From: an uncultured Candidatus Saccharibacteria bacterium
Lineage (GTDB): Bacteria; Patescibacteriota; Saccharimonadia; Saccharimonadales; UBA4665
Assembly (NCBI GenBank): GCA_963743435.1
Contig: CAVUPG010000004.1
Location: 176,238-240,237, forward strand
Direction: 5' to 3'
DNA length: 64,000 nt
This document shows, one piece after another, positions 14,432 through 56,190 of the stretch (the stretch's first letter is position 1; each line of letters begins with the position of its first letter). The position numbers and the translations under genes are program-made. Under the pieces are notes generated by a model. The model saw nothing but the letters and a program-made list of their open reading frames with translations. It ran no database searches and was not told the DNA's origin.

Positions 14432-17400
14432 CTAGAGCGAGATGTTTTGCTTTACACCGGCTCTACTAAACCAGTTACCGCCGTGCAGTAATGTTTGCAT
14501 AAGGGGGCCATACGACGTCTCAGCAATATTGTTAGCCCCCAGCTGACTACCCGCACTCGTTGCAACCCTTACACAAAAGTCCTTCCCCTTCAGAGCCGCA
14601 TTATCAACAGTTAGTGGGAGGAGCCACATCGCATCTTCACCAGCATACACGGTCGATTGGCTATTTGAGAAATTGTTCGATTCATTGTAGGTTTGTGCCC
14701 GAATAGTTCGTGAGCCGTCTGTAAGATCGTTACTGCCGGCTAACAGTGTGGTGGGGTTACCTAAAGTTGGGTTGTCATAATACCTCAATGTCGTAGCTGA
14801 GGTAACATCACTATAATTTCCACTAGTTACCGCGCTACAAGTTGCCGCAGACCCCCGCAGAGCGTACTGGAGCTTGAATGCCTGGCTGCCCGCGCTTATC
14901 CCGCTATTATCCACTCGTATGACAACGCCAAGATATACCGCTAATAAAGACGGCATGTCGTACGGTTTATTTTCTGGAGCTAGAGCCGACCCCGCTGCGA
15001 TTCCACCACTAACCGCGACTATAGGGGTAGTGTCACTCGTGTAGTCAGTTCCGTCACTGTAGTTTGTGCTGGTGTAGTCGGTGCCGTCAGATTCATTAAC
15101 ACTCGTGTAGTCGGTTCCGTCACTGTAGTTTGTGCTGGTGTAGTCTGTGCCATCTGACTTATTTAACACTGGTATAATCGTCCCATCCACTTTCATTGTG
15201 CTGGTATAGTCCGTACCATCAGATCGGCAATACGTACCACAACCGCCAATACTACCATCGCTTTTATACTTCGCTAGTAGCGCCACACTAGTGCCACCGC
15301 CGAAACTATACGTATACCCAGCTACTGCATAGCCACCATCGTTGGTTTGTACAACAGAAAATGCTGTGTCGGTACTATTATAGCCAAGTGTTTTGCTCCA
15401 GCTGAGCGTGCCTGTGCTGGTAAATTTAGCCAGGAACATGTCCGTTGACCCGTACCCGAACAATGTGCTCCCCACGACTGCATAGCCGCCGTCACTGGTT
15501 TGAACTAAAGGAAAACCATAGTTATTAGTACTGCCGCCCCAGGTTTTGCTCCAGCTGAGCGTGCCGGTGCTGGTGTATTTGGCCAGGAAGACATCAGTCG
15601 TATCTCCGCCAAAACTTTTCGTGTAGCCAGTAATGGCATAGCCGCCGTCGCTCGTTTGAACGACTGACTTGCCTTCTTCGGCTCCAGCTGCACCGCCCCA
15701 GGTTTTGCTCCAGCTGAGAGTGCCTGTGCTGGTGAATTTAATGAGACACATATCCTTGCTGCCGGAGGTGAAGCTTTGACTATAACCGGTAATAGCATAG
15801 CCGCCGTCACTAGTCTGGATAATGGAAGCACCCTGCTCGTAAGATGTACCGCCCCAGGTCTTGCTCCAGCTAAGCGTGCCGGTGCTGGTGTATTTTAGGA
15901 GGATTACATCATCCTGCCCAGCGCCTATAGTTGCGTTTGCTCGCCCAGTAAGCGCATAACCACCGTCGCTTGTCTGAACAATTGAATAAGCCTCCTCGTT
16001 ACTAGCCGCACTTCCCCATGTCTTGCTCCAGCTGAGGGTACCGGTGCTAGTGTATTTCAATAAACAAGCATCGTAGTTGCCGGCACCGTATCCTGAAGTA
16101 GAGCAGGCAATCGCATAGCCGCCATCGCTGGTCTGGATTATTGAATATGCAGTATTATACCCCCCATTTGTAGCACCCCAAGTTTTGCTCCAGCTCAAGA
16201 CGCCTGAGGAGTCAAATTTCGCAATAAATACATCGTAGTTGCTGGGGAAACTCCCAGTGTACCCCGTCATTGCATAACCGCCGTCGCTAGTATGTATGAC
16301 AGAGCGAGCGATATCAGAGCCATTACCACCCCAGCCCTCGGCGAATGTTACGCCCTGATCGTCAATCCCGTCGAACATACGATATGACTGCTGTGTAAAG
16401 CTTGCGGCTGGCGTCGTGATTTCAGGATATACCGTGTAGGTATTGAGGTCTGTGCCATCGCTCTTTACTACCTTGAAACAGTACGTGGTGTTTTGTAGGG
16501 TATTCTGCCCAACTAATGCAAAGTCCCACATGCCATCCTGACCAGCGGACACGGATGCGGTGGTAGTAAAAATAGAAGTACCGTACTCATGGTACGACTG
16601 TGCAATATTACTGTCTGCACTATGCACAGGATCGGCTGCGTTCGTTTGCAGGGGCAACCCATTACCCGCTTTAGGGTTATTGTAATATCGTATAGTCGTA
16701 CTATCAGTTACATCACTATATGTGCCCGAAGATACGGCGCTACATGAGCCCGCTCCGCCTTTTTCAGCATATTTCAGTTTGTAGCTGAAATAGCCTGCTG
16801 CCAATTGCGCACCCGACACATGCATATCCAGCCGGAGTCTAAATGGAGTACCGTCTCCAGGCGCAGTCGCTGCAGTATCTTGGCCTGCAAGTGCAGCACC
16901 AACATCGATAGCCGGCGCGGAGTTTATGAGGACAGTTAGTGTGCTCGTATAATCAGTACCGTCGGTCTTCTTTGTGCTGTTGTAATCTGTACCGTCGGCC
17001 TTCATGGCGCTGTTGTAATCGACGCCATCTGAGTGATGCGTGTAGGTGTAGTCGACGCCTTCGGTTTGCGTAGTGCTCGTGTAATCGACGCCGTCGGTTT
17101 TGACGATACCGGTGTAGTCAACCCCATCGGTTTTACATACCGTAGAGCAGTTAGTCATTGCTCCAGTGGACGTAAATTTCAGCAATAGTACTTGCTGATT
17201 ACTACTGCCGACGAAGGTGCTGCCAGCGATAACATAGCCGTCGTCATCTGCTTGAGCAATTGAGTATCCGTATGAGCCAGAGGCACCATCCCACTCTTTA
17301 CCCCAGCTAAAAGCACCTGCACTGGTGAGCTTAATAAGTATCACTGGGCCGCCACCCAGTCCAACCGCGTTCCCGTAGCCCGTGTATGCCAACCCACCGT

Positions 17401-18979
17401 CGCTTGTCTCGACAATAGACTCTGCAACATCAGTGTTACTGGTGCCCCATGTCGTACTCCAGCTAAACGTTCCGGTGCTTGTAAACTTCGCTACAAAGGC
17501 ATCAAATCCGCCTGCGCCGAAACTGCTAGTAGACCCTGCGATAACTAGCCCGTTATCACTCGTTTCTGTGAGACTATTACAGCCACTCGCTCCGCCCCAC
17601 AATTTAGACCAACTTAAACTTCCGGAATTGCTATATTTCACCAGGAACACATTACTACTGCCAGAGGTACCGGCGACCGCATACCCAGTATCTGATGTTT
17701 GTATGACTTTTTTAGCAATATCATTGTTGGTACCTCCCCAAGTTCTACTCCAACTCAGCGTCCCAGAACTCGTGAACTTCGCGATGTACATATCGTCTAA
17801 CCCCCCACCGGTGTAGCTGGTGGTTGACCCTACCATGACATAGCCCCCATCTGCGCTCTGAATAACAGAGTATGCCCTGTCATTCGAGGTGCCTCCCCAG
17901 GTTTTGCTCCAGCTCATGGTACCGGTGCTATCATATTTTGCTATAAATGCGTCAGTTAGGCCCGTTCCAAAAGAAGCTGTTTGCCCAACGACTATATAGC
18001 CGCCGTCACTCGTCAGCGCAAGGCTTTCACCAGTGTCATTCGAGGTGCCTCCCCAGGTTTTGCTCCAGCTCATGGTACCGGTGCTATCATATTTTGCTAT
18101 AAATGCGTCAGACTGTCCTGCCCCAAAGCTTTTAGTGGTACCTCCCACAGCATATCCGCCATCAGATGTCTGTAAGATGGTAGAGGCAACATTGTCTTGA
18201 GTCCCAGTGCCTCCCCACTTGTTGGCAAATGTCACATCACCACTATCAGTATTATTGAACCAGCGGTATGCAGATTGATTAAGTACTATAGATGATGTAT
18301 ATGTTAGTGTAGCGTACACATTGGCAATCTGCAGCGTATCCGCCTGGCCAGATGGGTTACCGCTCCCCTGTTTGACTCGAGTAATCTGAGCTTGCATACT
18401 GTCGACAGCAGTTTGATTCCATGAGCCGTTAAATGTAGCTGTACATGCCGTCCAACTATTGTATGCGGGGGTACACGTTCCTGCTGTCTGCAGCGTGCCA
18501 CTCACACGCAGATTGATACTGAGATCATCGAGAGTACCACCGTTTGCATTCGTGGTGCTCTCCGCATAAACCCGCACCACAACTTGGGTAGCGGTCGACA
18601 CATCTGCGGGGGATGTCAGGCCGTATTCTTCGACTTCACCACCGCCAGTACTTCCACTGGTAGTAACATAATCGGTGGTTTTATCGGTGGTGCCTTCATC
18701 CACAAAATCACAGTGCGTACCGCCCGCACAGGTACTATCGGTTGTTCCGCCTGTGGCTGGCCAGCCGGTCGTAACATCTGTATTCGGTACAAGCGTCACG
18801 CTAACTGCTGAACTGAAAATCGTGTTGCCGAGTAGCAGTCCTAGAGTTACAGTCAAAACTGCGACACCTGCTGATTTAACCGTGCGGTAGCGCCACCGCA
18901 TGTACCAATGCCATGCTGGAGAAACCATCAGCCTGAGGTTGTGAATTATTACTCGTAGAAAGGTGGAAGCGCTTTTCAT
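14432..18979 (-). CDS. giant signal-anchored repeat protein: 2 x [seven SBBP-like beta-propeller repeats + six 11-aa DG(T/V)DYT repeats + beta-sandwich module]
   Basis: Intact 1515-aa ORF. TM helix at about aa 36-58. There are 7+7 repeats of about 42-45 aa of the type TSDGGYAxxGxTxSFGxGxxDxFxAKYxSTGTLSWSKTWGG. The start codon lies 1 nt after the stop of the upstream fibre gene. Confidence 0.8.
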   Translation of the reverse strand: MKSASTFLRVIIHNLRLMVSPAWHWYMRWRYRTVKSAGVAVLTVTLGLLLGNTIFSSAVSVTLVPNTDVTTGWPATGGTTDSTCAGGTHCDFVDEGTTDKTTDYVTTSGSTGGGEVEEYGLTSPADVSTATQVVVRVYAESTTNANGGTLDDLSINLRVSGTLQTAGTCTPAYNSWTACTATFNGSWNQTAVDSMQAQITRVKQGSGNPSGQADTLQIANVYATLTYTSSIVLNQSAYRWFNNTDSGDVTFANKWGGTGTQDNVASTILQTSDGGYAVGGTTKSFGAGQSDAFIAKYDSTGTMSWSKTWGGTSNDTGESLALTSDGGYIVVGQTASFGTGLTDAFIAKYDSTGTMSWSKTWGGTSNDRAYSVIQSADGGYVMVGSTTSYTGGGLDDMYIAKFTSSGTLSWSRTWGGTNNDIAKKVIQTSDTGYAVAGTSGSSNVFLVKYSNSGSLSWSKLWGGASGCNSLTETSDNGLVIAGSTSSFGAGGFDAFVAKFTSTGTFSWSTTWGTSNTDVAESIVETSDGGLAYTGYGNAVGLGGGPVILIKLTSAGAFSWGKEWDGASGSYGYSIAQADDDGYVIAGSTFVGSSNQQVLLLKFTSTGAMTNCSTVCKTDGVDYTGIVKTDGVDYTSTTQTEGVDYTYTHHSDGVDYNSAMKADGTDYNSTKKTDGTDYTSTLTVLINSAPAIDVGAALAGQDTAATAPGDGTPFRLRLDMHVSGAQLAAGYFSYKLKYAEKGGAGSCSAVSSGTYSDVTDSTTIRYYNNPKAGNGLPLQTNAADPVHSADSNIAQSYHEYGTSIFTTTASVSAGQDGMWDFALVGQNTLQNTTYCFKVVKSDGTDLNTYTVYPEITTPAASFTQQSYRMFDGIDDQGVTFAEGWGGNGSDIARSVIHTSDGGYAMTGYTGSFPSNYDVFIAKFDSSGVLSWSKTWGATNGGYNTAYSIIQTSDGGYAIACSTSGYGAGNYDACLLKYTSTGTLSWSKTWGSAASNEEAYSIVQTSDGGYALTGRANATIGAGQDDVILLKYTSTGTLSWSKTWGGTSYEQGASIIQTSDGGYAITGYSQSFTSGSKDMCLIKFTSTGTLSWSKTWGGAAGAEEGKSVVQTSDGGYAITGYTKSFGGDTTDVFLAKYTSTGTLSWSKTWGGSTNNYGFPLVQTSDGGYAVVGSTLFGYGSTDMFLAKFTSTGTLSWSKTLGYNSTDTAFSVVQTNDGGYAVAGYTYSFGGGTSVALLAKYKSDGSIGGCGTYCRSDGTDYTSTMKVDGTIIPVLNKSDGTDYTSTNYSDGTDYTSVNESDGTDYTSTNYSDGTDYTSDTTPIVAVSGGIAAGSALAPENKPYDMPSLLAVYLGVVIRVDNSGISAGSQAFKLQYALRGSAATCSAVTSGNYSDVTSATTLRYYDNPTLGNPTTLLAGSNDLTDGSRTIRAQTYNESNNFSNSQSTVYAGEDAMWLLPLTVDNAALKGKDFCVRVATSAGSQLGANNIAETSYGPLMQTLLHGGNWFSRAGVKQNISL
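15025..15235 (-). repeat. in-frame 33-nt tandem repeat (6 copies, xSDGTDYTSTx)
   Basis: Encodes RSDGTDYTSTM KVDGTIIPVLN KSDGTDYTSTN YSDGTDYTSVN ESDGTDYTSTN YSDGTDYTSDT. Confidence 0.85.
16945..17140 (-). repeat. in-frame 33-nt tandem repeat (6 copies, KTDGVDYTxxx)
   Basis: Encodes KTDGVDYTGIV KTDGVDYTSTT QTEGVDYTYTH HSDGVDYNSAM KADGTDYNSTK KTDGTDYTSTL. Confidence 0.85.
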
Positions 18980-18980: not shown

Positions 18981-21900
18981 TTAGTAATTCTCGTTAAAGC
19001 CGAATTGGAACGAACCGATTCGGACTAAATTAGTTTGCGGGCTGATGGCCGTCGGCTTAATGACGAAGGTTATCGTATCGTTTGCCGAGAAGCTACACCC
19101 GTTCCCGGGGTCGCTGATTGTCGTGGACGTCCATGATCCGGTTTGTTTGATCGACTGAGCCGATGCGTAGCAGCTCGTACCGCTTGCATCTTTTATCATG
19201 ACGGTTGCATCGGTGCTGGTGCCAGAGTCGAGGTATGACCAGAAGGTAAAGCTGCTGGAGGTGAACGACGTAAAGCCACTTGGGAGTTGGTACTGCACCA
19301 CTATGTCATAGTCCTGTGCCGTCCCCTGGTCAGTTGTCCATGCGTAGTAATTTCGCCCGGCAGTTGCATCGTAGTCGCTGGTCATGAAGCCCGTATTATT
19401 CGAGCCATCCGCCGAGAATACCGTGCTTGGGAACTCTGGGTTGATTTTGACGGTACGAACATGCGAGGAGCCGCTGCCGGTGGTGTCACAGTCAACCCAG
19501 CCCGTCGTGTAGCACTTGAACTTGTTGTTGGTGCTGTCGTAGTACATTGCACCGGCAAGACCTGTCGGCGTGATGGTAGATGGCACATTGTCGAGCACAA
19601 GAAGGGTGACATCGCCCGCAGCAGAAGCAGTACTATCGCCAATCTTGATGCGGTTGTTGCTCGTATCAGCCTGGAAGAGTACCTGGCTGCCGCCATTGTT
19701 TTGTATCTGAAGAGCGGTCGCCGAGTCAGCGAGCGGGCGAATTGTCGGCGTGTACACGCTCGTACCGAAGTAGCCGCTGCGCCAGGTGATAGCAGAGCTA
19801 CCGAGGTCGTCGGTGTTGGTAGTGTCAGAGATGAGGCTGGTGTTGATAGCGACACTGGCAAGGTTACTGAGCGCCTGGTTTGCGCCGCCACCGCCACCGC
19901 CGCAGCCCGAGCTCATCGTACAGATAGTATCGTTTCCAGTCAGGTCTGGGATACTCAGGGTGAAGCTACCAGTTGTCTGCGTAGCAGAAGTGAGGGTAAC
20001 GACATAGTTATTCGTGACGTTAGCGAAAGTAATCTTCCCGCTGACGGCGTTCGTACCGCCGTTGTAGTTACCGAGTTCAATTTGGCCAGAGGTGGTGTTT
20101 ACGTTCAGGACCGCGACACCGTTGCCGTCTTGTATATTGACGGCCGAGCTAGAGCTGGCTTGCCTGAAGCGGATGTCTTGGCCATTTGCCGCTATTGCCT
20201 GCCCAGAATATACAGTGCCTGTACCGAGGTCAAAGATACTTGTAGCACCCGTACCGTAGAAGAGATTGGAGGACAAAATATTGTATTGCTGTGACGAATT
20301 CGGTATGTAGATAGCGTATCCGGTACCAGCAGTGTCGGTGATGACGTTATTGTTTACGAGGTTGTAACTACCTGTTAGGTATATGCCGCCATTGTTAGAA
20401 CTACCACCTGGGTTAGTTATAGTGTTGTTGGAGAGTTCGTTATTGTTATTTGAGCCATTCATGTATATAGCATAACCACCCGAATTCACTACTGTATTCC
20501 CTGTGATACTGTTGTATTTACCGCCCACGTTTATACTTATTCCCTTGCTGTCCCCGGTTGAACTATTTCCTGAGACAGTTGTATAGCTCGCAGATACATA
20601 GATGCCGATGTTCGTGTTACTGACAGTTTTGTTACCGGAGATGATAGCACCATCTGTCAACACAGTGAGACCCTGGGCGTTTGATACAGCGGTATTATTC
20701 GTGATGCGCGCGGAGGCACTATTCGAAAGATACAACGCATAATTCTGGTTTGATGCAAAGTAGTTACTCGTGACAGAGGCATAGTTGACGCCTGTCATGC
20801 TAACACCGTATGTTGCGTTGTTGTATACGTATGACCTTGTGATCGTAACGTAGTTGATATTACTCATGTACATACCATTGGAACGGAAATTGCTGACCGA
20901 AACTCCATCGATTAGAATACCCGGTGCGCTGTTGGTTGCACTGGAGCTTAGATTAATACCTGTCTGCGTTCCAGAACTGTTGTTAGCCCGGTTACCGTCA
21001 ATTACTAGGTTTCTGATAACCATCCCTGATGCTCCCGTGGCGTTTATGACATTCACGGCCGCGTTTACAGAGTTAGCTAATTTTAAGACGGTTGCATTAT
21101 CAGTTCCGGCGAGGATCACATTTGTCCCGATATTTATCGCTCCATCCACGATGTATGTCCCATCCAGCAGGTACACAGTACCACCACTGGCTGGCAGAGC
21201 TGCGATAGCTGCGTTTATGGTGGTCTGGGCACTGGTACAGCTTGTATCGACGTAGTCGGCGCCGTCGTAGTTCTGTGAAGCAGTTGGGGTGGTACCAGTA
21301 CAACCAGTGGTTGGGCCCATGGCGACTATCTTGGTGGCGGTAGAGCGATCACTCACCCACTTGGTACCGTTGTACTGGAGGAGTTGGTGAGTACTGGTGT
21401 CGAAGTAGAGCATACCCTCGGTTGGAGAGCCGGGGCGAGAGGCGGTGTTGCCGCCGGTGAAGGAGATAGTTTGGTTAGCACCGAGGACAGCACCAGCATT
21501 GATGTTGACACTGTCGTTGAGGTTAATGGTCCCTGCCCCGTCGAGAACGATGTTACCACTCGTGGTGGTGGTAAGGTTGAGGTCACCGCTGGTGACGTTG
21601 AGGGCTGCACTGAGGTTGGTGGAGGCGATGTTGCTGAGGCTTGTGTTGGCGCCGCCGGCACCACCACAACTGGTCCAACCTAGCACACCACTGCCGGTTG
21701 TGTCTGACAGACAGTCGCCAGAGCTACCGAGGCCGGTTGGGAGGGTGAGATTGTAGCTGGTGCTAGTAGCACCAGACTGGATACCGACGTTATTGGCGTT
21801 GGTAGAGTTGTTGAAGACAATCTTACCGTTGACGGCGTTAGAGGCGTTGTACTCACCAAGCTCTATCTCTCCGTTGGTGGTGTCGACATTAAGGACGTTT

Positions 21901-46052: not shown

Positions 46053-46299
46053 TATACCCGAATGCGGAAATTTTGTCTGGCATCGATCCGCTGCCGTTTA
46101 TCGCGCACCAACTACCTACGAAACTGCCTGAGCAGCTCGAAATTCGTGTGATGTGTCCTGCGGAATCGATAGCAGCATATGCGATGTTGTCGGTCGACTT
46201 CCCAGAGTTACCTGTGAAACACACACTATTATTCCCAACTGCCGTGCAGCCCCCGATGTAGTAAATGTAGCCATTGTTGATTATGGCACCCCCGGACAT
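45970..46299 (-). CDS. Kelch-like protein fragment
   Basis: Contains NNGYIYYIGGCTAVGNNSVC and NNTMYIIGGT. Confidence 0.55.
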   Translation of the reverse strand: MSGGAIINNGYIYYIGGCTAVGNNSVCFTGNSGKSTDNIAYAAIDSAGHITRISSCSGSFVGSWCAINGSGSMPDKISAFGYSVFNNTMYIIGGTTGTQWQDTVMRVDL

Positions 46300-46345
46300 A
46301 CCCCCCGCCTGGCCGTTACCATCCCCCTGTGGTGGCAGGTCGCAG

Positions 46346-47218: not shown

Positions 47219-47271
47219 ACAGATACAGATAGCCGTTATACGCCACTAGGGAGGCGCCTTGACGTACCTGG

Positions 47272-48456: not shown

Positions 48457-48764
48457 CGGTTTCGTATCTGATAGCGCTCGTGCTTTGCGCCGTAACTGCT
48501 GTATTGGGTGGCGAGGTATCCTAATCGATATAGTACCCTTGTGTGGGCTCCGGAGCGCGGTATCTCTTGAGCATGCGATTGTGCCGTCGGTCTTGCCGCT
48601 GGGCGTGCAGTATCATCGAGGTATGACGGGCCTGTACGATACGTTGGCTTTTGTCTATTATCCATGTCGGTTTCCAGCTGGTTGCGTGTAGCCGCTCTCT
48701 ACAGTGGCCGACGCTCCTATTACACTAATGCTTTCTAGTGTAGCACTTTTACCCCCGTTTGAAT

Positions 48765-48800
48765 AGCAAAAGCCCAGGGATAAAACCCTGGGCTTTTGCT
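48765..48800. terminator. perfect 15-bp inverted repeat, bidirectional intrinsic terminator
   Basis: agcaaaagcccaggg (48765-48779) / ccctgggcttttgct (48786-48800) with a 6-nt loop. The GC core is followed by TTTTGC on both strands. Confidence 0.7.
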
Positions 48801-48839
48801 GAATGTGTTTGTTTTGGTTACTGACCAGACAGTATGAAC

Positions 48840-49134: not shown

Positions 49135-52100
49135 CTACTTGTTGCTGTACTGGAACGTTAAGTTTTCTGCATATACCGAAGCGTTACTTTGCGCGGTCAC
49201 ATCAATCTTGAAGACGATGCTATCTCCAGCGACAAACGAGGTACAGCTGCTCGGATCGGTGGTCGGCGCAGCGGTGGTCCAGGTATTGGTCGAACCCGAG
49301 CCAGAGCCCACGACTGTCTTACTCGCACTACAGCTCGTGAGACCACCGCCAGATGCTTTGCGGTAGATTGAGTACGCTATGCCGGCATTGGATGTACTGT
49401 CGACCAGCCCTGTCATATTGGTCGACCCACTGACGAAGCCCTTAAAGGTTGACGGCAAGCGGTAGGTGACGTAGATGCTGTAGGTCTGTGCTGTAGGTTG
49501 TGGTGAAGTCCACTTGTAGTAGTTGCGTGCCTCGCCGCTAGCACAGAAGCCTGTGTTGACCGAGAGACCACCACCGTTGCCACAGAAGTCGGCTGTCAGC
49601 GTACCCACGCCCGTGCCGTTCAGTACGGCGCCAGTATACTCAGGAGTAAGCGTGATGATGTCATCTGGCGCACTACCACAAGCACCCCAGCCATTTGACT
49701 GGTAGCACTGGATAGTACCCTTCGTGGTGTCGTAGTACATTGAGCCGAGGAATGAGTCATTACCAGCATCCATCGGTGGACCAGCAAACTGGTCGAGAGT
49801 GAAGATGGTTGGCTGGCCACCGAATGAACCGCCACCAATCTGGACATTTGCAGGAGTAGTACTGCCAGCGTTTGAGATGACACTCAGGTTGTCGATGTAG
49901 AAAGTGCCCGATCCAAGGTCCGTTTCATAGATACGGATGGCATTCCCAGAGGTGATACCACTACTCGGAACGGTGATGAAGCATGATACCTTCGTCCAAC
50001 TACTCTTGATGGAGAAGTCAGTGGTACTGGTGTAGCCAGTGCCTGGCAAGCTGGACTCACATGCTGCGCTGTTTGCTGAGCCATCGATGCTGTAGTAGAT
50101 ATTGAGTGTGTTCGGGCCACCACTTGCAACCTTGGCTGCGAAGTTAACGACGTAGATTTCGTCAGCCGTCAGCGACGTTGTCAGGGCGCCCTTTACCCCT
50201 TGGTTGTTGCCTGTGGTGACTACACTCACCGATGCACGTCCTGTTGCGACATTGCTCGATGTTGTGTTCTGAGTGACTGTTGAGCCGATCGCAGTCCAGC
50301 CAGTGAAGGTTGTTTCCTCTGCGCCACCATTGTCAGCGTAGTCTGTCGTGTTGTTGTTGACTGAGAAGAGGTTGGTGGCAATTGAGCTCTGAACCTCAAA
50401 GAGGGAGCCTGTAATCGGCACGCCATTGTTACGGATAGTGAAGCCGTCTGCATTACCGCCAGGAGCGTTCAGTACGAGCTCTGCACCACCGGCACTCGTC
50501 AGCGTGTTGTTGTAGGCAGACTGAAGGTCAGTCGAGCTTGATGCACCAGCAGCGGTCCAGCCTGTGCCGTTCCAGATGAGCGTGGCGGTGCTGTTTGGCT
50601 TAAGCGCGATGTTGATGCTCGTACCAGAAAGCAAGATGTTGAAATCCTCGCCTCCGACATTTGCCAGGTAGAGCACACGACCGACGACTTGGTTAGCCGC
50701 TGCAGGCGCAGGCACTGTGACCGTTACCCCTGTCGTTGTAGCTGCGACTGGCACAGAGCTGTACTGGTCAACGAGGCCAGCGGTCAGGCTACCAGAACTG
50801 CCGAAGCTTTGGGTGCTGCTCGAGAGGAAGGCACTGGTCGAGAAGGTCACGAGGCCCTGGACGCCACTACCCGTCCCTGCGCCACCACTGATGAGTACAG
50901 CCCCGCCGTCTGCATTCGTCCCGCCACCGGTGCCACCCTTGATGGTGACTGCGCCACCGGTACCGGTGCCGTTGCCGGTGCTGCCCTGAATTGTCAGGCT
51001 TGTACCTGCAGTGTTAGCTGCCGTCTGTGTCGCGCCCTGTATGGTCGTATTGCCGGTTGCAGAGCCAACGGTGATAGTGTCTGAGCCAAGTACGGTTGCA
51101 TTGGCGCTATTACCGATGGTAACTGTGCCAGTTGATGTGCCGGTTGCAATGTTTACGGCGTAGTTGCTGTTTGCGTTGAGGTTCACGGCCCCGCCGCTAG
51201 CAGTAAGAGAACCTGTCGCCACGACGTCACCTTGCAGGCTAAGATCTATGCCTGCGTGGCCGATATTGATAGACTCAGCATTTGTTGTGCCGATATTGAT
51301 AGCTGGTGTACCCTGATTCTTCACGATTGTAATGTCATCGAAGTACGTTATAGAGCTACCGGTACCGGTACCACCGAATGTCAGGTACATGTAATTAGCC
51401 CCTGCCGGCACTATCGTCGTGAGTGTCATCTGCGTCCATTCAGTTGTGGTAGCGGTTACGCTCGGTATAGAGCTGTAAGGCGCAGGACCACTCCATTCGA
51501 TTTCGCCACCGATGTTCTCGCTGACAGTAGCTGTCTTTACCCATGCACTAACCGTAATTTGTTCGCCTGGCGTGACTGCTACCGAGTTATAGTCCTGCTG
51601 AATACCCCAGTAGGTAGCCCCCTCCGCTACCTGGAGTACACACGAGCCACCATGGGCACCTGCGCCCAGGTTATGACCTGTAAGGGTAGTGTCGAACCAG
51701 TCGTTCATATCATCGGTCGAACAACCCTCGAAATCGTCATTGACTGCGGTGGCTGGAGACCCTGCGTCACTTGCACCGTTATCGATAGATATGTTGCCCG
51801 CAACACCACTCGATGAGTCACCTGACTTGAGGTACACCGCGCCGCTATTCCCTGTTGTGTTACCGGTCGTCGCTACAAGAGATCCAGTTCCTGCTTGCAA
51901 TGTAAGGCTGCTGGCACCACTCGTAGAACCGAGTGTTACCGCTTGGTCACCAGTACCTGTGGCGATGTTTACAGAGTGATTAGCGTTGTTTGTCGCAACA
52001 TTCACGGTCGTGGCGTTGGTGGTACCGATAGAGAGCGTACCTGCTGCTGCGGTGTCGAGGAGCGGAGTCAGGATGCTGGTGTCAGCTCGACCGGTGCCGG

Positions 52101-55100
52101 CGATCCAGAAGCTGGCAACACCGTCTGTCTGTTGTGCACTGTTCTGGTTCTGGATGAAGTTGGCGCTGCTAGCCGCACAGTTACCGAGCGTCTCGAGACA
52201 GAAGGTGTCATCAACACCTGCTGTATCAGGGATGGTGATGGTGGCATCCGCACTCGTCTGCCCCTCCGAGACGATACTGACCTTGTACGCAGTCGTGCTG
52301 CTGTAGAGTGCGATGCTACCGTCAGTGGTGCTGGCTACACCAAGCGTGAGGCTCGAACCACCAGTGATGGTACCGGAGATATCGGTGTTTGCGTTCAGCT
52401 TGATAGAGCCCGCGGGTTGGATGACGTAGTTACTTGAGCTATCGACCTGGCCGGCGTAGATGGTGCCAGTACCAGCATCGTTGATAGTGGTCGCCCCCGT
52501 ACCGCTGAATGTGTTACCCGAGAGATAGGTACCACTGATGCCCGTTGCATTAATCTGGATGGCGTAGCCGGTACCGGCGGTATCAGAAACGGTGTTGTCG
52601 GTAATTGACGCGTTACTTGCGTACGCGCTGATAGTAATTGAGCTGGATGCGCCTGAGCCACCATTGTCGTAGAGGACGTTGCCCGTGATGGTGACGCCGT
52701 CAGAGTGGTAGGAAGTGGCGCCGTTTATTCGTATCCCCTCGGTCGTGTTGCTGCTGGCCGTGTTACCGGATACCAGTACGCGGTTGGAGCCGTAGACGTA
52801 GAAGCCAGGGCCAGTGTTTGAGACGGCTTTGTTGCCGCTGACGACCGCATCGTCGCTGTAGGCAATGTCGAAGCCACCGTTACCATTACCAGACGCGGTG
52901 TTGCCTGTCACGCGCATGTCGACATCTGAGTCGAGGTAGAAGCCATAGCTGTAGGCGTTGTTGGCCGCCGTGTTGCCTGAGACGACGTTGCGGGTGCCAC
53001 CGACGTAGAACCCTGCACCCCCCGTGTTGGTTGCGGTGTTATTACTCACAATGTTGTCGGTACCGAAGATTTCCATACCGTCGCCGCCGGCAGTGTTACT
53101 GACTGTGTTACCAGTGATGGTGTTGAAGCTGGAGCTAGAGTAGACATTTATACCACCGCCACCGGTGTTGATGATAGTGTTGTCAGTGAAGGTGTTGTGG
53201 TCACCCGAGGTAATGTCGAGGGCATCGTAGGCAACCCGGGTAATCTGTAGACGAGTCACAGTCGCACCGGCGCGTGAGCCAGACTCACTGCCCATGCCGG
53301 TGAGGTTGATGCCTGCTTGTGATCCAGCGCTGTTGCGGTCATTGCGGCCATCGAGCTTGAGGTCACGGATGGTGACGCCGGTACCAGTAGAAGTGTCGGT
53401 GTTCACGATCATGGTGACGGCTGTGCTGGTAGCTCCGAAGTTACCGAGCTGGATGAGCGTGCTGTTGCCGGAACCAGCCAGGGTGACGTTGTTCGGGATG
53501 GAGATACTACCGTCGATGGTGTAGGTGCCTTCGGCGAGGTAGACGGTACCACCACCGGCTGCTGCTGCAGCGGTTAGGGCGTTGTTTATCTCTATCTGGT
53601 CACCGTCAAGGGTACCGATGCCAGCGCCAGCGCTGTCTTCACCGTTGGCAACGTACTGAGCACCGTCTTTGGCTGCTTGGGAGCTGTTGCTGGCGGCGAC
53701 GATGAAGGTAGCGGCTTTGCTGTCGCTCTGCCATTTAGTGCCGTTATATTGGAGGAGTTGGTGAGTAGTGGTGTCGTAGTACAGCATACCTTCAGTTGGA
53801 GAGCCTGGGCGGGTACCGGTGGCACCGCCGGTGATGGTGATGGACTTGTTGGCGGCGAGGACGGTGTCTTGGTTGAGGTTGATGCTGGTGGCGTTGGTGG
53901 TGCCGATGTTGAGGGCAGTTGCTGAGGCGGTGTCGAGCAATGGCGTCAGGACAGACGTATCAGCTCGAGCCGTACCGCTGATCCAGTAGTCACCTGTCTG
54001 CTGGCTGCTACTTTGGTTCTGGATGAAGTTCGTGGCTGTTGGTGCGACGTAGCTCGCATCACAGTCACTCAGCAAGCCAGAGCCGTTGAGACACACCATA
54101 GTGGTGCCGGTGGTGCTATTTAATGTAATACCTATGTCTCCTGCGACAGTCGTGGTGACGCCTGACTGGCCTATAGTTATATCACTCGCATTTGTTGTGC
54201 CTATAGTTAATGAAGCGGAGCTCGCAGTGTCTAGGTACGGTGTCAAGACGCTGGTAGTACCCTCCAGTGTCGCAGCGATGCCTGTGCCGTTTATATTAAA
54301 GTTGCCAGCCTGCGCTGTGCCTGGTGTTGTTCCCTGGAGTGAGACGTAATTAGCGCCGGCGTCGGTCACGCCAATAACTCGCCAGAGACTGTCGCCGCTA
54401 TCATATATAAGTTGTATGGAACCACCGACGGGAATGTTAAGGTTGGCGCCCGTCCCGGTAGTGATGCGATTGGCTGCGCTACTAGTACCTGCATTGTTTG
54501 CAAGCACTGCTGGTGCACTCCCTGCGTTCAGGAGTGTTATCGTGCGACCATCAGTACCGCCGGCGATACCGTTTATCGTCTGCGTGCTGGCGCCGGTGAG
54601 ACGGAAGAGGACGCCAGCGCCAAAATTGACGTCATCGCTTGCACCAGTAGTGCTAAAGTCTGTTCCCTTGTTGAAGGCGACGCCGCTTGTGTTCTGGAAT
54701 GTTGCGTCTCCGACAAAATCTGAGGAGCCATTGAAGGTGTTCGTCGAAGATGAGTTACCGAAACGGATGTCGGTTGCGTTGGTGTCACCGAACGAGATAT
54801 ACCCAAGAGTGCCAGTTGCCGTACCAACGTCAAACCTAATGTTGCCTGAGTTACCCCCGGTTGCGTCACCGCTCTTGATGAGGAACCCACCCGTGTTACC
54901 ACTGACGGTGCTACCACTACGGATAGTGAACGCTACGCTGTCCCCGGCAACGGTGCGGTCCAGCGTACGGATAGTGCCAGTGGTGGCACTGACGATGTCC
55001 CCGCCAAAGAATGCCTTGCCCGCACTATCGATATAGAACAGCTTAGTCCCAGATGAGTTCTTCACCTGGAGGTAGTCGACGCTCTGTCCGCTTGCCCCCT

Positions 55101-55794
55101 GGAATACTGCGACTGAGCTTGCTGCATTAGCGCTCTGGATGTTGAAGTTGCCAGTTTGAGTACTTGCAGTCTGGTTTTGGATGTAGTTGGCGTTTGCCTG
55201 GGCGTCTGTGAGAAGGTTGTACGTCCCTGCCGCGCCCTGGTCTTGAATCTGGAAGGTTTGGTTACCACTGGTTGGAGCGTTGATGGAGAGCGTTGCGATG
55301 TTGGCACCAGAGCTTGTCGTCAACTCACTCGCTGTCTTCGCATTGAACGCATACGGTACGGCGGTGAGGGAGAGTCGTGGGGACATCTCACCGTCCCATG
55401 AGTTGGAGGTGCCAGTACCACCGATGTCCATGGTGAGGTAGAGCTGTTGGTCCCATGGGATGGTGGATGGGAAGCTGGTGATGGCACCGAGGTCAACGCT
55501 GAGGTAGCCGTTGGCAACTCTGACTCGGTTGTCAGGAGAGCCACCGTTGTAGTCACGGGTTTCAGTCCAGAGGAGGGTGCCACCAGTGGAGGCGTCGTAG
55601 AGCTTGAAGCGGACGTTGTAGTTCCCGTCTGGGGCGATCTGACCTGCTCCCTTCTGGAGGCGGGCTTGGAAGTTCAGGGTGTCGTTGGTGGCAGCATACG
55701 CAGGCGTAGACACGCGCGTAAGGAAAAACAGGGGTAGGATGAGCAAGAAAAGACCCGCAAAAATGCGGGCGGTTGTGAGCGCACGGTGAGGCAT
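49135..55794 (-). CDS. giant fibre protein D (2219 aa, intact): signal peptide, conserved N-terminal domain, fibre, beta-helix domain, two CBM4_9-like jelly-roll modules, conserved C-terminal domain
   Basis: Start chosen at MPHRALTTARIFAGLFLLILPLFFLTRVSTPAYA|ATND (AAGGGG SD). The ORF-track extension to 56028 has no coding support. Beta-helix at about 52450-53560. CBM-like modules at about 51320-51755 and 49880-50360. Confidence 0.85.
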   Translation of the reverse strand: MPHRALTTARIFAGLFLLILPLFFLTRVSTPAYAATNDTLNFQARLQKGAGQIAPDGNYNVRFKLYDASTGGTLLWTETRDYNGGSPDNRVRVANGYLSVDLGAITSFPSTIPWDQQLYLTMDIGGTGTSNSWDGEMSPRLSLTAVPYAFNAKTASELTTSSGANIATLSINAPTSGNQTFQIQDQGAAGTYNLLTDAQANANYIQNQTASTQTGNFNIQSANAASSVAVFQGASGQSVDYLQVKNSSGTKLFYIDSAGKAFFGGDIVSATTGTIRTLDRTVAGDSVAFTIRSGSTVSGNTGGFLIKSGDATGGNSGNIRFDVGTATGTLGYISFGDTNATDIRFGNSSSTNTFNGSSDFVGDATFQNTSGVAFNKGTDFSTTGASDDVNFGAGVLFRLTGASTQTINGIAGGTDGRTITLLNAGSAPAVLANNAGTSSAANRITTGTGANLNIPVGGSIQLIYDSGDSLWRVIGVTDAGANYVSLQGTTPGTAQAGNFNINGTGIAATLEGTTSVLTPYLDTASSASLTIGTTNASDITIGQSGVTTTVAGDIGITLNSTTGTTMVCLNGSGLLSDCDASYVAPTATNFIQNQSSSQQTGDYWISGTARADTSVLTPLLDTASATALNIGTTNATSINLNQDTVLAANKSITITGGATGTRPGSPTEGMLYYDTTTHQLLQYNGTKWQSDSKAATFIVAASNSSQAAKDGAQYVANGEDSAGAGIGTLDGDQIEINNALTAAAAAGGGTVYLAEGTYTIDGSISIPNNVTLAGSGNSTLIQLGNFGATSTAVTMIVNTDTSTGTGVTIRDLKLDGRNDRNSAGSQAGINLTGMGSESGSRAGATVTRLQITRVAYDALDITSGDHNTFTDNTIINTGGGGINVYSSSSFNTITGNTVSNTAGGDGMEIFGTDNIVSNNTATNTGGAGFYVGGTRNVVSGNTAANNAYSYGFYLDSDVDMRVTGNTASGNGNGGFDIAYSDDAVVSGNKAVSNTGPGFYVYGSNRVLVSGNTASSNTTEGIRINGATSYHSDGVTITGNVLYDNGGSGASSSITISAYASNASITDNTVSDTAGTGYAIQINATGISGTYLSGNTFSGTGATTINDAGTGTIYAGQVDSSSNYVIQPAGSIKLNANTDISGTITGGSSLTLGVASTTDGSIALYSSTTAYKVSIVSEGQTSADATITIPDTAGVDDTFCLETLGNCAASSANFIQNQNSAQQTDGVASFWIAGTGRADTSILTPLLDTAAAGTLSIGTTNATTVNVATNNANHSVNIATGTGDQAVTLGSTSGASSLTLQAGTGSLVATTGNTTGNSGAVYLKSGDSSSGVAGNISIDNGASDAGSPATAVNDDFEGCSTDDMNDWFDTTLTGHNLGAGAHGGSCVLQVAEGATYWGIQQDYNSVAVTPGEQITVSAWVKTATVSENIGGEIEWSGPAPYSSIPSVTATTTEWTQMTLTTIVPAGANYMYLTFGGTGTGSSITYFDDITIVKNQGTPAINIGTTNAESINIGHAGIDLSLQGDVVATGSLTASGGAVNLNANSNYAVNIATGTSTGTVTIGNSANATVLGSDTITVGSATGNTTIQGATQTAANTAGTSLTIQGSTGNGTGTGGAVTIKGGTGGGTNADGGAVLISGGAGTGSGVQGLVTFSTSAFLSSSTQSFGSSGSLTAGLVDQYSSVPVAATTTGVTVTVPAPAAANQVVGRVLYLANVGGEDFNILLSGTSINIALKPNSTATLIWNGTGWTAAGASSSTDLQSAYNNTLTSAGGAELVLNAPGGNADGFTIRNNGVPITGSLFEVQSSIATNLFSVNNNTTDYADNGGAEETTFTGWTAIGSTVTQNTTSSNVATGRASVSVVTTGNNQGVKGALTTSLTADEIYVVNFAAKVASGGPNTLNIYYSIDGSANSAACESSLPGTGYTSTTDFSIKSSWTKVSCFITVPSSGITSGNAIRIYETDLGSGTFYIDNLSVISNAGSTTPANVQIGGGSFGGQPTIFTLDQFAGPPMDAGNDSFLGSMYYDTTKGTIQCYQSNGWGACGSAPDDIITLTPEYTGAVLNGTGVGTLTADFCGNGGGLSVNTGFCASGEARNYYKWTSPQPTAQTYSIYVTYRLPSTFKGFVSGSTNMTGLVDSTSNAGIAYSIYRKASGGGLTSCSASKTVVGSGSGSTNTWTTAAPTTDPSSCTSFVAGDSIVFKIDVTAQSNASVYAENLTFQYSNK
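55331..55749 (-). repeat. shared 5' module, copy D (coding part only)
   Basis: See 27071-27685. Confidence 0.75.
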
Positions 55795-56190
55795 GACAAT
55801 ACCCCTTAGTCGAGAGAGACTAGGGGTGCGTTGCAATATGGCAAGCGCCGTACGTTTTGGTTTGAACATTTGGTTTAAGGTGTTTGTCTTGGTTTCGCTT
55901 TTTGACTTGCGAGAGACCAAAAATGTTTGTTTGGATTTGTCACGTTTTCGTTTGAATTTTTGTTTCGGACAATTCCTGCACTCAGTATCGCTAGATACGA
56001 CAAGATATACAACCGAAAATGTATGCAAAAATTTGTACCCAATTTGTGCATAAATACCTCTAGAATACGTTGTGCTGTGTGCAACGTTTCATATACACCC
56101 CTGTTTTCTGCACTCGTTTAGGCTACAAAAAGTGATGTAGTGACACCAAATTTCGTAGCTATATTTGCAACGATATTTATATTGCATGTG

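Follow-up and report, generated by a model that had tools for sequence, protein, structure and literature searches.

Giant fibre and propeller genes at one chromosomal locus of an uncultured Saccharibacterium: candidates for a host-contact apparatus

What does a bacterium with a tiny genome do with a block of giant genes at a single locus, and are these genes intact? The question arises from a window of 64 kb (the whole stretch of DNA analysed here), in which stop-to-stop frames and ORF lists revealed five giant genes and one gene for a 306-aa membrane protein, all on the minus strand at 14432–56028. This island accounts for 65% of the window.

The island and its chromosomal site

The island is bordered by parAB on one side and by rplU (56258–56572) on the other. 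All substantial minus-strand frames between parA and rplU are parts of the giants or of the 306-aa gene; frame maps and ORF lists thereby bear out the arrangement of five giants described in the first-pass annotation, which had been made from the letters alone. The left boundary gene, parA (12824–13583, minus strand), is split by one frameshift located in the zone 13074–13189. A tblastn search with the intact 255-aa ParA of a relative (L001) gave two HSPs in different frames, and three GGGG runs fall within the break zone. The giants consist of 52–65% Thr, Ser, Gly, Asn, and Ala and of 3–7% Lys, Arg, and Glu, as compared to ~26% and ~20%, respectively, in IleS, which confirms the compositional bias noted earlier. 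The GC content of the island resembles that of the flanks.

The flanks contain housekeeping genes exclusively; genes for phage functions, mobility, or dedicated secretion are absent, as had been claimed. Across island and flanks, we found no genes for capsid, tail tube, baseplate, or other phage structural proteins, and none for lysis, integrase, transposase, toxin, or immunity proteins. Signal peptidase I is encoded three genes (~2.6 kb) away from the island, and an LCP transferase is encoded in the flanks. Flanks and relatives point to a monoderm CPR bacterium, in agreement with the compact monoderm or CPR-type genome proposed before: the nearest genomes are MAGs of Ca. Saccharibacteria/Saccharimonadales, sharing the order L31-prfA-prmC-htrA-LCP-lepB-parB-parA-island. 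Thus, the synteny comparison suggested for the parAB region recovered the same flank-to-island order in Saccharimonadales MAGs, and the chromosomal site is identical in at least four of them.

An independent sister contig, contig_84624 (L020/L021), aligns colinearly to window positions 46729–25080 at 95–96% identity. It covers the Kelch gene, the 306-aa gene, Fibre C, the junction between Fibres C and A, and the 5' end of Fibre A, and differs from the window by one 1.66-kb module indel. The L001/L019 genome has the same island order minus one fibre. Because the order was reproduced in contig_84624 and in L001/L019, the gross gene order of the island is not an assembly chimera, a possibility that the first-pass annotation had named as an objection. 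The pair of a fibre gene followed by a p1515-like gene also occurs in L004, L009, L013, L014, and L016, and Kelch and beta-helix genes co-localise in CP064992, too.

Three related fibres and two propeller giants

Fibres A, C, and D constitute one undescribed family. Each comprises a Sec signal peptide, an Ig-like N-domain, a modular beta-helix shaft of the pectate-lyase type, and a variable tip, and the canonical signal peptidase I site lies between ...STPAYA and ATNDT. The domain-wise profile searches proposed earlier returned Beta_helix, CBM_4_9, and Kelch matches above the curated cut-offs. Beta_helix, NosD, and Pect-lyase_RHGA_epim matched Fibres A, C, and D at or above these thresholds (models PF13229, PF05048, PF12708, and TIGR03804; cut-offs 19–27 bits), which places all three among the right-handed parallel beta-helix proteins. 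A recognisable wall- or membrane-anchoring motif was not found on the fibres.

The N-domain (mature residues ~1–110; 27100–27432, minus strand, in Fibre A) was modelled with AF2 as an Ig-like beta-sandwich with a pLDDT above 90 for residues 40–145. Paralogous copies are located on the same strand at ~41694–42026 in Fibre C and ~55360–55692 in Fibre D. The model had no match in the PDB fold search at E<1e-3 and weak phage matches only in BFVD, and no Pfam model matched the domain. At E<=1e-3, the N-domain was found in 10,155 representative proteins; in 150 of 150 among the matches listed it lies near the N-terminus, in proteins of up to 5,425 aa. Combined with the C-region it occurs in 59 of 120 relatives, including minimal forms of 570–670 aa, and shaft length therefore varies. 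Three family members end in a PF13884 phage tail-fibre chaperone domain, which is an indirect hint at trimers.

The fibre genes also share a 5' cassette of A/C-rich leader, Shine-Dalgarno sequence, signal peptide, and N-domain, located on the minus strand at 26516–27686 (A), 41104–42275 (C), and 55205–55827 (D). The cassettes of A and C are 88% identical over 1179 nt, with a core of 98% and full identity (100%) from -77 through the signal peptide; both are 87–88% identical to that of D over 628 nt. Judged from these near-identical cassettes and their shuffled modules, the three fibres are paralogues, a relationship that is new here.

Fibre A (18981–27534, minus strand, ~2850 codons) carries signal peptide, N-domain, right-handed beta-helix shaft (Beta_helix, 158 bits; NosD, 119 bits; PF12708, 28.8 bits), and a CBM-like tip; its matches to tailspike PHROGs were weak. 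The tip, formed by the last ~160 aa (18984–19463, minus strand), was modelled with AF2 as a jelly-roll with a pLDDT of 80–95. Foldseek matched it to CBM61 in the PDB (2xom; E 7e-6, TMt 0.66), to the Klebsiella phage K2-2 tailspike (8iq9/8iqe), to phage Kp7 gp52 (7xyc), and to CBM11/22/4. Structure prediction of parts, as recommended in the first-pass annotation, thus yielded a confident N-domain fold and a CBM/tailspike-like fold for the Fibre A tip. Fibre D (49135–55794, minus strand) is intact with 2219 aa and consists of signal peptide, N-domain, beta-helix (Beta_helix, 84 bits; a second beta-helix model, 42 bits; TIGR03804, 61.7 bits), a CBM_4_9 domain, and a CBM-like tip. The CBM_4_9 match (PF02018; ~51379–51747, minus strand; ORF residues 1428–1550) scored 35.3 bits at a cut-off of 25.9, and sugar binding is predicted on this basis. 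The tip (~49138–49848, minus strand) is homologous to that of Fibre A, with 32% identity in tblastn. The positional counterpart of Fibre D in a relative is a 1524-aa protein with 62% identity over the C-terminal ~1000 aa. Fibre C (28008–42128, minus strand, ~4700 codons) combines an A-type 5' cassette and N-domain with a beta-helix shaft and a distinct, unassigned tip, which showed no similarity to the A/D tip in tblastn. Its Pfam matches fall into the pieces 33112–33696 and 40206–42203, the latter with Beta_helix, NosD, and Pect-lyase_RHGA_epim at 35.6, 34, and 36.8 bits, respectively. The shaft includes a mannuronan-C5-epimerase/pectate-lyase-like module (PDB 8xfq; E 5e-4 over ~180 residues).

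The gene for p1515 (14432–18979, minus strand; 1515 aa, intact) starts 1 nt beyond the Fibre A stop codon. The protein has an N-terminal membrane anchor (transmembrane segment at residues 33–51) and is composed of two copies of a unit with a delta-60/SBBP-like beta-propeller, 11-aa DGTDYTS tandem repeats (33-nt repeats in the gene), and a beta-rich domain. DUF5122 (PF17164; 57.4 bits, cut-off 27) and TIGR02608 (124.8 bits, cut-off 76.5) assign it to the delta-60 repeat proteins, and the CylK propeller was the sole match in a sequence search of the PDB. The SBBP-like double propeller described previously therefore stands as to repeat type and the two copies; it does not extend to membership in the Leptospira SBBP lipoproteins (LipL53, NF047494), for which p1515 scored 95.8 bits against an equivalog cut-off of 400. 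A TNT toxin domain is present in one distant homologue of p1515.

The Kelch giant (43479–48456, minus strand) is one gene of ~1650 codons, whose product has a signal anchor at its N-terminus and several beta-propellers of the Kelch type. The piece 43479–45284 matched Kelch_1 (51.6 bits, cut-off 20.1), Kelch_6 (47.8 bits), and PF24681 (73.4 bits, cut-off 50), and additional profile matches in the upstream pieces likewise identify it as a Kelch-repeat propeller protein. The gene for the 306-aa protein (42550–43470, minus strand) starts 8 nt past the Kelch stop codon. According to hydropathy, its product is a single-pass membrane protein whose cytoplasmic N-terminal half is basic and rich in Pro, Ser, and Gln, with a transmembrane segment at residues 145–163 and an external domain of ~140 aa; it had no Pfam, NCBIfam, or PHROG match. 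The coupled layout agrees with the first reading, and the pair is kept in L001/L019, where the partner has 280 aa and is 37% (tblastn) or 45% (MAFFT codon alignment) identical.

Hydrophobic N-terminal segments were found on the giants, in line with the signal peptides or signal anchors reported earlier. The C-termini of p1515 (...KQNISL), Fibre A (...FGFNENY), Fibre D (...FQYSNK), and the Kelch giant (...PLDTPF) lack both an LPXTG motif and a transmembrane segment. The absence of LPXTG, observed already in the first pass, rules out sortase anchoring for these four proteins.

Frame breaks, selection, and exchange between lineages

Fibre C had been seen in many frame pieces, and we counted ~16 frame lesions in this gene and ~5 indel lesions in the Kelch gene, most of them outside homopolymers. 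By contrast, the remaining giants have 0–1 lesions, and the housekeeping genes have 1 in ~21 kb. Moreover, breaks and divergence both peak in the 3'-terminal 1.7 kb of Fibre C, and one nonsense codon is real and private to the window (TAA near 33705; TCA in contig_84624). Fibre C and the Kelch gene might thus be genuine, recently decayed pseudogenes and the island partly a relic, which would leave two of the five giants inactive in this strain. We consider this unlikely, since all checkable breaks are missing from the 95–96% identical sister contig, which has private 1-nt deletions of its own in the same genes. Seven Fibre C lesions are window-private: 39448, 35026, 34321, 34025, 33860, ~33705, and 32989. 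Fibre A contains a single break, a window-private 1-nt deletion near 25104–25111 through which contig_84624 reads, instead of the two breaks listed originally. Two TGAs that seem to be in frame, at 33736 and 45456, turned out to fall in out-of-frame stretches between paired indels. Core or essential genes are broken in these long-read MAGs as well, namely parA in the window and IleS and Kelch in a relative, whose 714-aa and 823-aa Kelch calls are one indel-split ORF; L020 is continuous across this junction.

Fibre C shows a dN/dS of 0.09 against the sister strain, with overwhelmingly synonymous substitutions. The C-terminal 374 aa of the Kelch giant are 85% identical to those of a relative at a pS of 0.71 and a dN/dS of ~0.05. 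From these ratios, one between strains and the other between lineages, we conclude that the island genes are under purifying selection; its absence was to have counted against the island as coding sequence. The breaks are probably for the most part consensus errors, given that the checkable ones are absent from the sister contig, that Fibre C has a dN/dS of 0.09, and that parA is broken, too.

The p1515 gene contains a tract (15980–18667, minus strand; codons ~105–1000) that is near-identical to the orthologue in the Ca. Saccharibacteria MAG MFD05684.bin.1.284. Within this ~2.7-kb core, pS per 100 codons is 0–0.17, with several 200-codon runs at 0, as compared to 0.64–0.91 at the gene ends and 0.77–0.82 in the flanking housekeeping genes. 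In blastn, window and partner are 94% identical over 4.26 kb and 66–70% in the flanks. The housekeeping genes of the partner are saturated (48–75% amino acid identity), and p1515 is 47% identical in another relative with an equally distant ParB. Near-identity of the core alongside saturated housekeeping genes indicates recent inter-lineage recombination, a pattern that is new here and is read from the alignments. Fibre A has two comparable minus-strand segments within 20019–22712 (20019–21418, 94% DNA identity; 21952–22712, 98.9%), found by blastn in permuted order in the 2548-aa fibre of a distant relative. Sample ERZ25039549 contains both the exchange partner and the window-like strain. With both strains in the sample of the MAG, repeat collapse or cross-polishing during long-read assembly could partly have inflated the stretches of 100% identity.

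Recombination appears to diversify the locus, with paralogues keeping their 5' cassettes and swapping shaft modules and strains differing by entire modules. The p1515 and Fibre A tracts appear to have moved recently among Saccharibacteria with saturated synonymous sites, plausibly by natural transformation; natural competence has been shown in a cultured Saccharibacterium (PMC10633639).

A candidate host-contact apparatus

We interpret the island as a chromosomal cell-surface, glycan-targeting host-contact apparatus of an epibiotic Saccharibacterium and assign this reading a probability of roughly 0.6. Fibres A, C, and D would be exported by the Sec system and cleaved by signal peptidase I between AYA and A. 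The conserved Ig-like N-domain would serve as the cell-proximal docking end, followed by the long modular right-handed beta-helix shaft of the pectate-lyase/C5-epimerase type. The variable distal end, predicted to be a CBM-like jelly-roll in A and D with an additional CBM_4_9 domain in D, may bind and perhaps cut polysaccharides of the host envelope. The two propeller giants, both with a predicted N-terminal anchor, may act as co-adhesins and/or as a platform holding the fibres; p1515 is coupled in translation to Fibre A, and the Kelch protein, which evolves slowly, is coupled to the 306-aa membrane protein. A tentative and rather doubtful extension envisages a cell-borne, chromosomally encoded equivalent of the receptor-binding apparatus of phages: a membrane-anchored, slowly evolving Kelch/306-aa/p1515 platform with interchangeable, probably trimeric fibres that dock through the universal N-domain and whose distal modules, binding or cutting glycans, are swapped among paralogues, strains, and even genera by natural transformation, so that one locus sets and rapidly re-sets host range.

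Attachment of the fibres to the cell is assumed, because they bear no recognisable anchoring motif, and they could instead be released as enzymes. That the giants are free polysaccharide-degrading enzymes for feeding on environmental or host-derived glycans would agree with their cleavable signal peptide, the Pect-lyase_RHGA_epim and NosD/Beta_helix matches, the mannuronan C5-epimerase 8xfq, the CBM_4_9 and CBM-like tip, and an alginate-lyase gene close to an N-domain protein in another genome. Soluble CAZymes, however, do not typically reach lengths of 2,200–4,700 aa with many non-catalytic-looking shaft repeats. In their conserved N-domain, variable tip, and shuffled modules the giants resemble receptor-binding fibres, and there is tight coupling between the fibres and the membrane-anchored propeller proteins; we therefore judge such a feeding role improbable. 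The surface or host-contact role proposed in the first-pass annotation had left a choice between adhesion fibres and an S-layer-like coat. Extracellular-type domains only, CBM/tailspike-like tips, selection, and synteny support the surface role as such; of the two options, adhesion fibres fit better, since the profile searches turned up neither SLH nor any other S-layer signature. A coat of the S-layer type or another protective coat, such as a shield against phages or host defences, is quite improbable, even though large, secreted, low-charge Thr/Ser/Gly-rich proteins occupy a large share of a tiny genome and phage-exposed surface proteins are also expected to recombine diversifyingly. Pfam and NCBIfam yielded neither an SLH match nor a match to any other domain of S-layer or wall-binding type in the island proteins, the tip folds match glycan-binding modules, and five different multi-thousand-residue proteins with lectin-like tips are unlike lattice-forming S-layer subunits.

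Weak PHROG tailspike and virion-protein matches, the tailspike-like tip, the mosaic of recent transfer, and the TNT domain of the distant p1515 homologue could suggest a phage-derived or mobile element (a prophage tail-fibre cluster or tailocin) or a polymorphic-toxin/contact-dependent-inhibition locus. Gene content largely refutes this origin, which we regard as hardly credible: phage, mobility, toxin, and immunity genes are lacking in island and flanks, the GC content is flank-like, the locus occupies the same site in at least four Saccharimonadales MAGs, and gene ends at background divergence argue for allelic replacement, not element insertion. A polymorphic toxin/CDI system was rejected, with no toxin or immunity family found and C-termini that are lectin-like or propeller-associated beta domains.

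The island fibres share with phage tailspikes (K2-2, 8iq9/8iqe; Kp7 gp52, 7xyc) a conserved N-terminus, a right-handed beta-helix, and a lectin/CBM-like C-terminus, which is a resemblance in working mode, not family membership. Further parallels are modular, recombination-driven exchange, the PHROG tailspike matches, and PF13884 in some family members. Unlike tailspikes, the fibres are 4–8 times longer, carry a Sec signal peptide, and are encoded at a conserved chromosomal site without phage genes. A role as virion receptor-binding proteins was discarded, as island and flanks hold no phage structural genes and the locus lies on the chromosome, with synteny among MAGs. FHA/TpsA, autotransporter adhesins, and mannuronan C5-epimerase (8xfq) have the right-handed parallel beta-helix fold in common with the fibres. 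In contrast to the diderm adhesins, however, the fibres belong to a monoderm CPR organism and have neither a TpsB/Omp85 partner nor a C-terminal beta-barrel translocator, which excludes two-partner secretion and autotransport.

The island joins a known kind, the giant surface proteins of CPR bacteria. Vampirococcus lugosii, a CPR epibiont, encodes several predicted surface proteins of 1.4–4.2 kaa, for which a fibrous host-contact surface was proposed (Moreira et al., 2021; PMC8080830). Compared by description, both are reduced-genome bacteria investing in such giants. The domains differ (WD40, PKD, DUF11, integrin, FN3, and saposin there; beta-helix, CBM, Kelch, and delta-60 propellers here), and clustering at one locus, shared 5' cassettes, and inter-lineage recombination are unreported in the Vampirococcus paper (PMC8080830). 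In Southlakia epibionticum, the adhesins SEML1_0890/0891/0315 are essential for epibiotic growth (Wang et al., 2023; PMC10633639). Again compared by description, this member of the same phylum has secreted proteins with glycan-binding-type domains, although these are VCBS, dockerin, and FN3 and differ from those of the island giants; its natural competence is a route for the recombination seen in the island. Predatory Omnitrophota possess proteins of up to 85 kaa that contain CBM-like regions and long beta-helices and for which roles in adhesion to prey and in digestion of walls were proposed (West-Roberts et al., 2023; bioRxiv 10.1101/2023.11.21.568195). The island giants are likewise very large with both types of region, but antiparallel beta-helices, SecA-like and dockerin domains, adjoining T2SS genes, and the far larger size are confined to the Omnitrophota proteins.

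The fragmentation of Fibre C and the Kelch gene carries a practical warning: indels heavily break up gene calls of repeat-rich giants in long-read MAGs and lead to under-annotation. To our knowledge, no host-recognition determinants of CPR epibionts are known beyond type IV pili and a few 'adhesins' of one Tn-seq screen. The locus offers concrete host-contact candidates at a conserved site adjoining parAB that occupies ~3–5% of the genome, along with a very large, undescribed family of fibres that is diagnosed by its N-domain and has lectin-like tips. It also provides direct sequence evidence that gene parts move between Saccharibacteria co-occurring in one sample. If the fibres set host range, the mosaic pattern would represent host-range evolution by recombination, and if the platform/fibre reading is true, the N-domain family, with more than 10,000 representative clusters, would be the hallmark of a class of bacterial surface fibres that is very widespread yet undescribed.

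Gene content and conservation of the parAB–rplU interval

Stop-to-stop frames and ORF lists revealed that the minus strand between parA (13071-13583) and rplU (56258-56572) is occupied by six genes, corresponding to 65% of the window. These encode a double-propeller protein of 1515 aa (p1515; 14432-18979, intact), the giant beta-helix proteins Fibre A (18981-27534, ~2850 codons), Fibre C (28008-42128, ~4700 codons) and Fibre D (49135-55794, 2219 aa, intact), a 306-aa single-pass membrane protein (42550-43470), and a Kelch giant (43479-48456, ~1650 codons). Domain searches at curated thresholds bore out the labels of the first-pass annotation. Beta_helix, NosD and Pect-lyase_RHGA_epim were matched in Fibres A, C and D, CBM_4_9 in Fibre D, and Kelch models in the Kelch gene. 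The p1515 protein matched DUF5122 and the TIGR02608 delta-60 repeats; its repeats are of SBBP-like type, but its score falls short of the Leptospira SBBP equivalog model, to which it was not assigned. A sequence search of the PDB returned only the CylK propeller for p1515, nothing for Fibre D, and only noise (E~0.6) for Fibre A. A protein database entry, P0001, is 100% identical to p1515. Following each propeller, 33-nt tandem repeats (15034-15224 and 16950-17142) encode 11-residue xDGTDYTSxx units.

The giants had been described as rich in Thr, Ser, Gly, Asn and Ala and poor in charged residues, and the counts agree: T+S+G+N+A amount to 52-65% and K+R+E to 3-7%, compared with ~20% K+R+E in IleS. 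Signal peptides or anchors were likewise found as described, with a canonical signal peptide in the fibres (cleavage between MSGRILTMARAISVLFLLILPLFFLTRVSTPAYA and ATNDT) and one hydrophobic anchor segment each in p1515, the Kelch giant and the 306-aa protein. An LPXTG motif occurs at none of the island C-termini read.

The flanks contain housekeeping genes only, in line with the earlier statement that dedicated secretion, phage-structural and mobility genes are missing. They encode RseP, RRF, S2, L31, PrfA, PrmC, HtrA, LCP, signal peptidase I, ParB and ParA on the parA side, and L21, a glutamine amidotransferase, IleRS and NrdJ on the rplU side. Rfam and tRNA scans detected no RNA genes in the window. 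The left flank (910-13583) is a conserved envelope/secretion housekeeping cluster shared with the related loci L001, L003, L004 and L014, in the order RseP ... HtrA, a 249-aa uncharacterised protein, LCP glycopolymer transferase, signal peptidase I, ParB and ParA. The signal peptidase I gene lies three genes (~2.6 kb) from the island, and its product would process the fibres.

A p1515 homologue with 93% identity is encoded on contig_10098 (729,692 bp, CAVSRJ010000001) of the uncultured Ca. Saccharibacteria MAG MFD05684.bin.1.284. The left neighbourhood there is the same (L31-prfA-prmC-htrA-x-LCP-lepB-parB-parA), and parA is followed by p1515, a 2548-aa beta-helix fibre, a 280-aa protein, Kelch, a 1524-aa fibre, rplU and ileS. 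The gene set thus occupies the same site between parAB and rplU in this relative, and in three further Saccharimonadales MAGs (L003, L004, L014) the position immediately upstream of parA-parB-lepB-LCP is likewise taken by p1515-like or fibre genes. Because these syntenic relatives are Saccharibacteria and Saccharimonadales, the earlier guess of a CPR-type monoderm was right. Judged by gene order, the parAB-adjacent site is a conserved home of this gene set. Fibres differ there in number and in length, and the window has two fibres where MFD05684.bin.1.284 has one. A fibre gene followed by a p1515-like gene recurs in L004, L009, L013, L014 and L016, and Kelch and beta-helix genes also occur together in CP064992. 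In the window, p1515 starts 1 nt past Fibre A and the 306-aa gene 8 nt past Kelch; both pairs, Fibre A/p1515 and Kelch/306-aa, are conserved and translationally coupled.

Architecture of the fibre family

A conserved N-terminal domain (N-domain) directly follows the signal peptide in Fibres A, C and D and in the 2548-aa and 1524-aa proteins of MFD05684.bin.1.284. AF2 modelled it as an Ig-like beta-sandwich with pLDDT >90 over residues 40-145. A fold search gave no significant match in the PDB, and the BFVD matches, all to small phage proteins, were weak; no Pfam, NCBIfam or PHROG model matched the N-domain stretch of the N-terminal fibre pieces. An exhaustive HMMER search retrieved 10,155 representative proteins at E<=1e-3, with 2,039 at E<=1e-10. 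Among the 150 matches listed, the N-domain is located near the N-terminus, and the proteins reach 5,425 aa. Precomputed Pfam domains are almost absent from the family members listed.

The last ~160 residues of Fibre A are predicted by AF2 as a confidently folded jelly-roll. In a structure search of the PDB, this tip matched CBM61 2xom (E 7e-6, TM 0.66), CBM11/22/4 and two phage domains, the C-terminal ones of the Klebsiella phage K2-2 tailspike and of Kp7 gp52. The Fibre D tip is 32% identical to that of Fibre A, and Fibre C ends in a different domain. N-domain and C-region are combined in 59 of 120 relatives, including minimal versions of 570-670 aa; the shaft is therefore a variable-length insert. 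Shaft modules gave weak tailspike PHROG matches and a match to mannuronan C5-epimerase 8xfq. Module junctions repeatedly carry a short motif, G-x-[LM]-Y-[FY]-D...Y-x-G-x2-W, which is the source of the phrog_20787 matches.

PF13884 is the intramolecular chaperone domain Peptidase_S74, which belongs to phage tail fibres and endosialidases. It terminates three N-domain family members, the paralogous ~950-aa proteins P0285, P0292 and P0298 encoded on one 163,892-bp JGI contig, which hints that the family forms trimers.

The fibre genes also share a 5' cassette. Fibres A and C are 88% identical over 1179 nt, with cores of 98%, and 100% identical from -77 through the signal peptide; Fibre D shares the cassette over 628 nt. 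The three leaders (27535-27700, 42129-42290 and 55795-55960) are A/C-rich and of low complexity (CAAAACCAAAAC...ACAAACAAAC...AAACCAAA) and may represent a shared 5'-UTR or regulatory element. A GAGGGG/AAGGGG Shine-Dalgarno sequence precedes all three genes. Promoter and terminator scans of five intergenic regions yielded counts not above those of shuffled sequences, with the exception of a hairpin at 48764-48801, within the 680 nt that separate the stop codon of Fibre D from the Kelch start. This single strong signal of the scans has a perfect 16-bp stem (TAGCAAAAGCCCAGGG...CCCTGGGCTTTTGCTG) and resembles a terminator.

Frame breaks and allelic exchange

Frame lesions number ~16 in Fibre C, ~5 in Kelch and one each in Fibre A and parA; p1515, Fibre D, the 306-aa gene and ~21 kb of housekeeping genes have none. 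The sister contig contig_84624 (L020/L021) is 95-96% identical to and colinear with window positions 46729-25080. It contains the C-to-A junction together with the 5' end of Fibre A, indicating a genuine gross order and not a chimeric assembly. Compared with this contig, the window has private 1-nt or 2-nt deletions at 45374, 39448, 35026, 34321, 34025, 33860, 32989 and ~25104-25111, and a TAA near 33705 where contig_84624 reads TCA. In turn, contig_84624 carries private deletions where the window is intact. Two in-frame TGA codons were rejected as recoding or nonsense, as they fall in short out-of-frame stretches between paired indels; there, the contig_84624 reading agrees with the Kelch protein of MFD05684.bin.1.284. 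The Kelch calls of 714 and 823 aa in that genome (L019 7660-12472) are not two genes but one ORF split by a single indel. Its IleS is also called as two ORFs (L019 1-1765) owing to a single indel, and Kelch and beta-helix genes of CP064992 (L036) are shredded likewise. Annotation of long-read MAGs systematically breaks up giant repeat-rich genes. In the window, parA (12824-13583) is split by a single frameshift in a zone with three GGGG runs (13074-13189), and the MFD05684.bin.1.284 orthologue is an intact 255-aa protein; the split is probably an assembly indel and provides a built-in gauge of the errors of this contig.

Fibre C substitutions relative to contig_84624 are overwhelmingly synonymous (dS 0.19, dN 0.016, dN/dS 0.09), revealing purifying selection on the coding sequence. 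The private lesions, the deletions of the sister contig, the split core genes and this ratio together argue for functional island genes, with consensus errors of long-read assembly behind most of the breaks. Filling all window gaps from L020 did not restore a single ORF because L020 carries its own indels; choosing the variant at each site extended one ORF to 2001 aa. Partial pseudogenisation of the island is the competing explanation. The lesions are strongly clustered in Fibre C and Kelch, as uniform error would not produce, and the clustering may stem from mixed-strain polishing or from very recent inactivation in this strain. Against the dN/dS of 0.09, we consider pseudogenisation unlikely. 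The 3' part of Fibre C (28448-29816) is both its most frame-broken part and by far the most divergent stretch between window and sister (17% mismatch at 29-30 kb, many indels); a conserved C-terminal piece of 156 aa (28011-28478), unlike the A/D tip, follows just downstream.

Divergence between the sister strains is mosaic, ranging from 0.4% to 17% mismatch per kb, and a module of 1.66 kb (window 39675-41338) distinguishes their Fibre C genes. Within the island, many shaft modules are found again at other positions, with 75-98% identity. Between the window and MFD05684.bin.1.284, housekeeping proteins share 48-75% identity, and their synonymous sites are saturated (proportion of synonymous differences, pS, 0.77-0.82). 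In contrast, p1515 codons ~105-1000 have a pS of 0-0.17, with several 200-codon runs at zero, and both gene ends are at background (0.64-0.91). Fibre A also contains two segments that match the MFD05684.bin.1.284 fibre at 94% and 98.9% identity, in permuted order. In another relative with an equally distant ParB, p1515 is only 47% identical; thus, the high identity does not reflect general conservation. A metagenome scan retrieved no further p1515 copy above 48% identity. This pattern of sequence identity bears the signature of recent allelic replacement via homologous recombination. Saccharibacteria are documented to be naturally competent (PMC10633639), and a window-like strain (contig_84624) and MFD05684.bin.1.284 were both present in sample ERZ25039549. 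Assembly-graph collapse could have inflated the stretches of exact identity; it cannot produce the overall contrast, because gene ends and flanks have diverged far too much to be assembled together. The C-terminal 374 aa of Kelch (43479-44645 vs. L001 1-1125) are 85% identical, above PrfA (71%) and L31 (75%). With pS 0.71, near saturation, and dN/dS ~0.05, this conservation is due either to constraint of unusual strength or to an earlier exchange.

Proposed function of the locus

The best-supported reading of the island is a surface, glycan-targeting host-contact apparatus. The fibres would be exported by Sec, held at the cell by the conserved N-domain, as we infer, and present variable lectin-like tips; the two anchored propeller giants and the small membrane protein would accompany them. 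The adhesion part of the first-pass proposal is thereby favoured, and its S-layer-like coat is rejected on gene content. A protective coat formed by the giants is accordingly judged improbable, the tips being CBM-like. The CBM-like tips and the epimerase match would also suit released CAZymes, set against the conserved N-domain and the coupling of the fibres to anchored propeller proteins; this alternative is unlikely. The locus parallels phage receptor-binding proteins in architecture and mode of evolution, but gene content rules out a phage derivation as well as prophage and CDI readings, and a mobile or toxin element is the least probable explanation.

Literature searches returned no paper on this locus, the N-domain family, or delta-60/DUF5122 function. 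Giant surface proteins of CPR epibionts are already a known theme (PMC8080830; compare bioRxiv 10.1101/2023.11.21.568195), as are essential adhesins in Saccharibacteria (PMC10633639); the general idea is expected. New are the conserved locus beside parAB, a very large fibre family defined here that had no annotation (N-domain, shaft, CBM-like tip), the shared 5' cassettes of its genes, and the clear inter-lineage recombination tracts. The locus provides testable candidates for host-range determinants and is useful and somewhat surprising to a CPR specialist.
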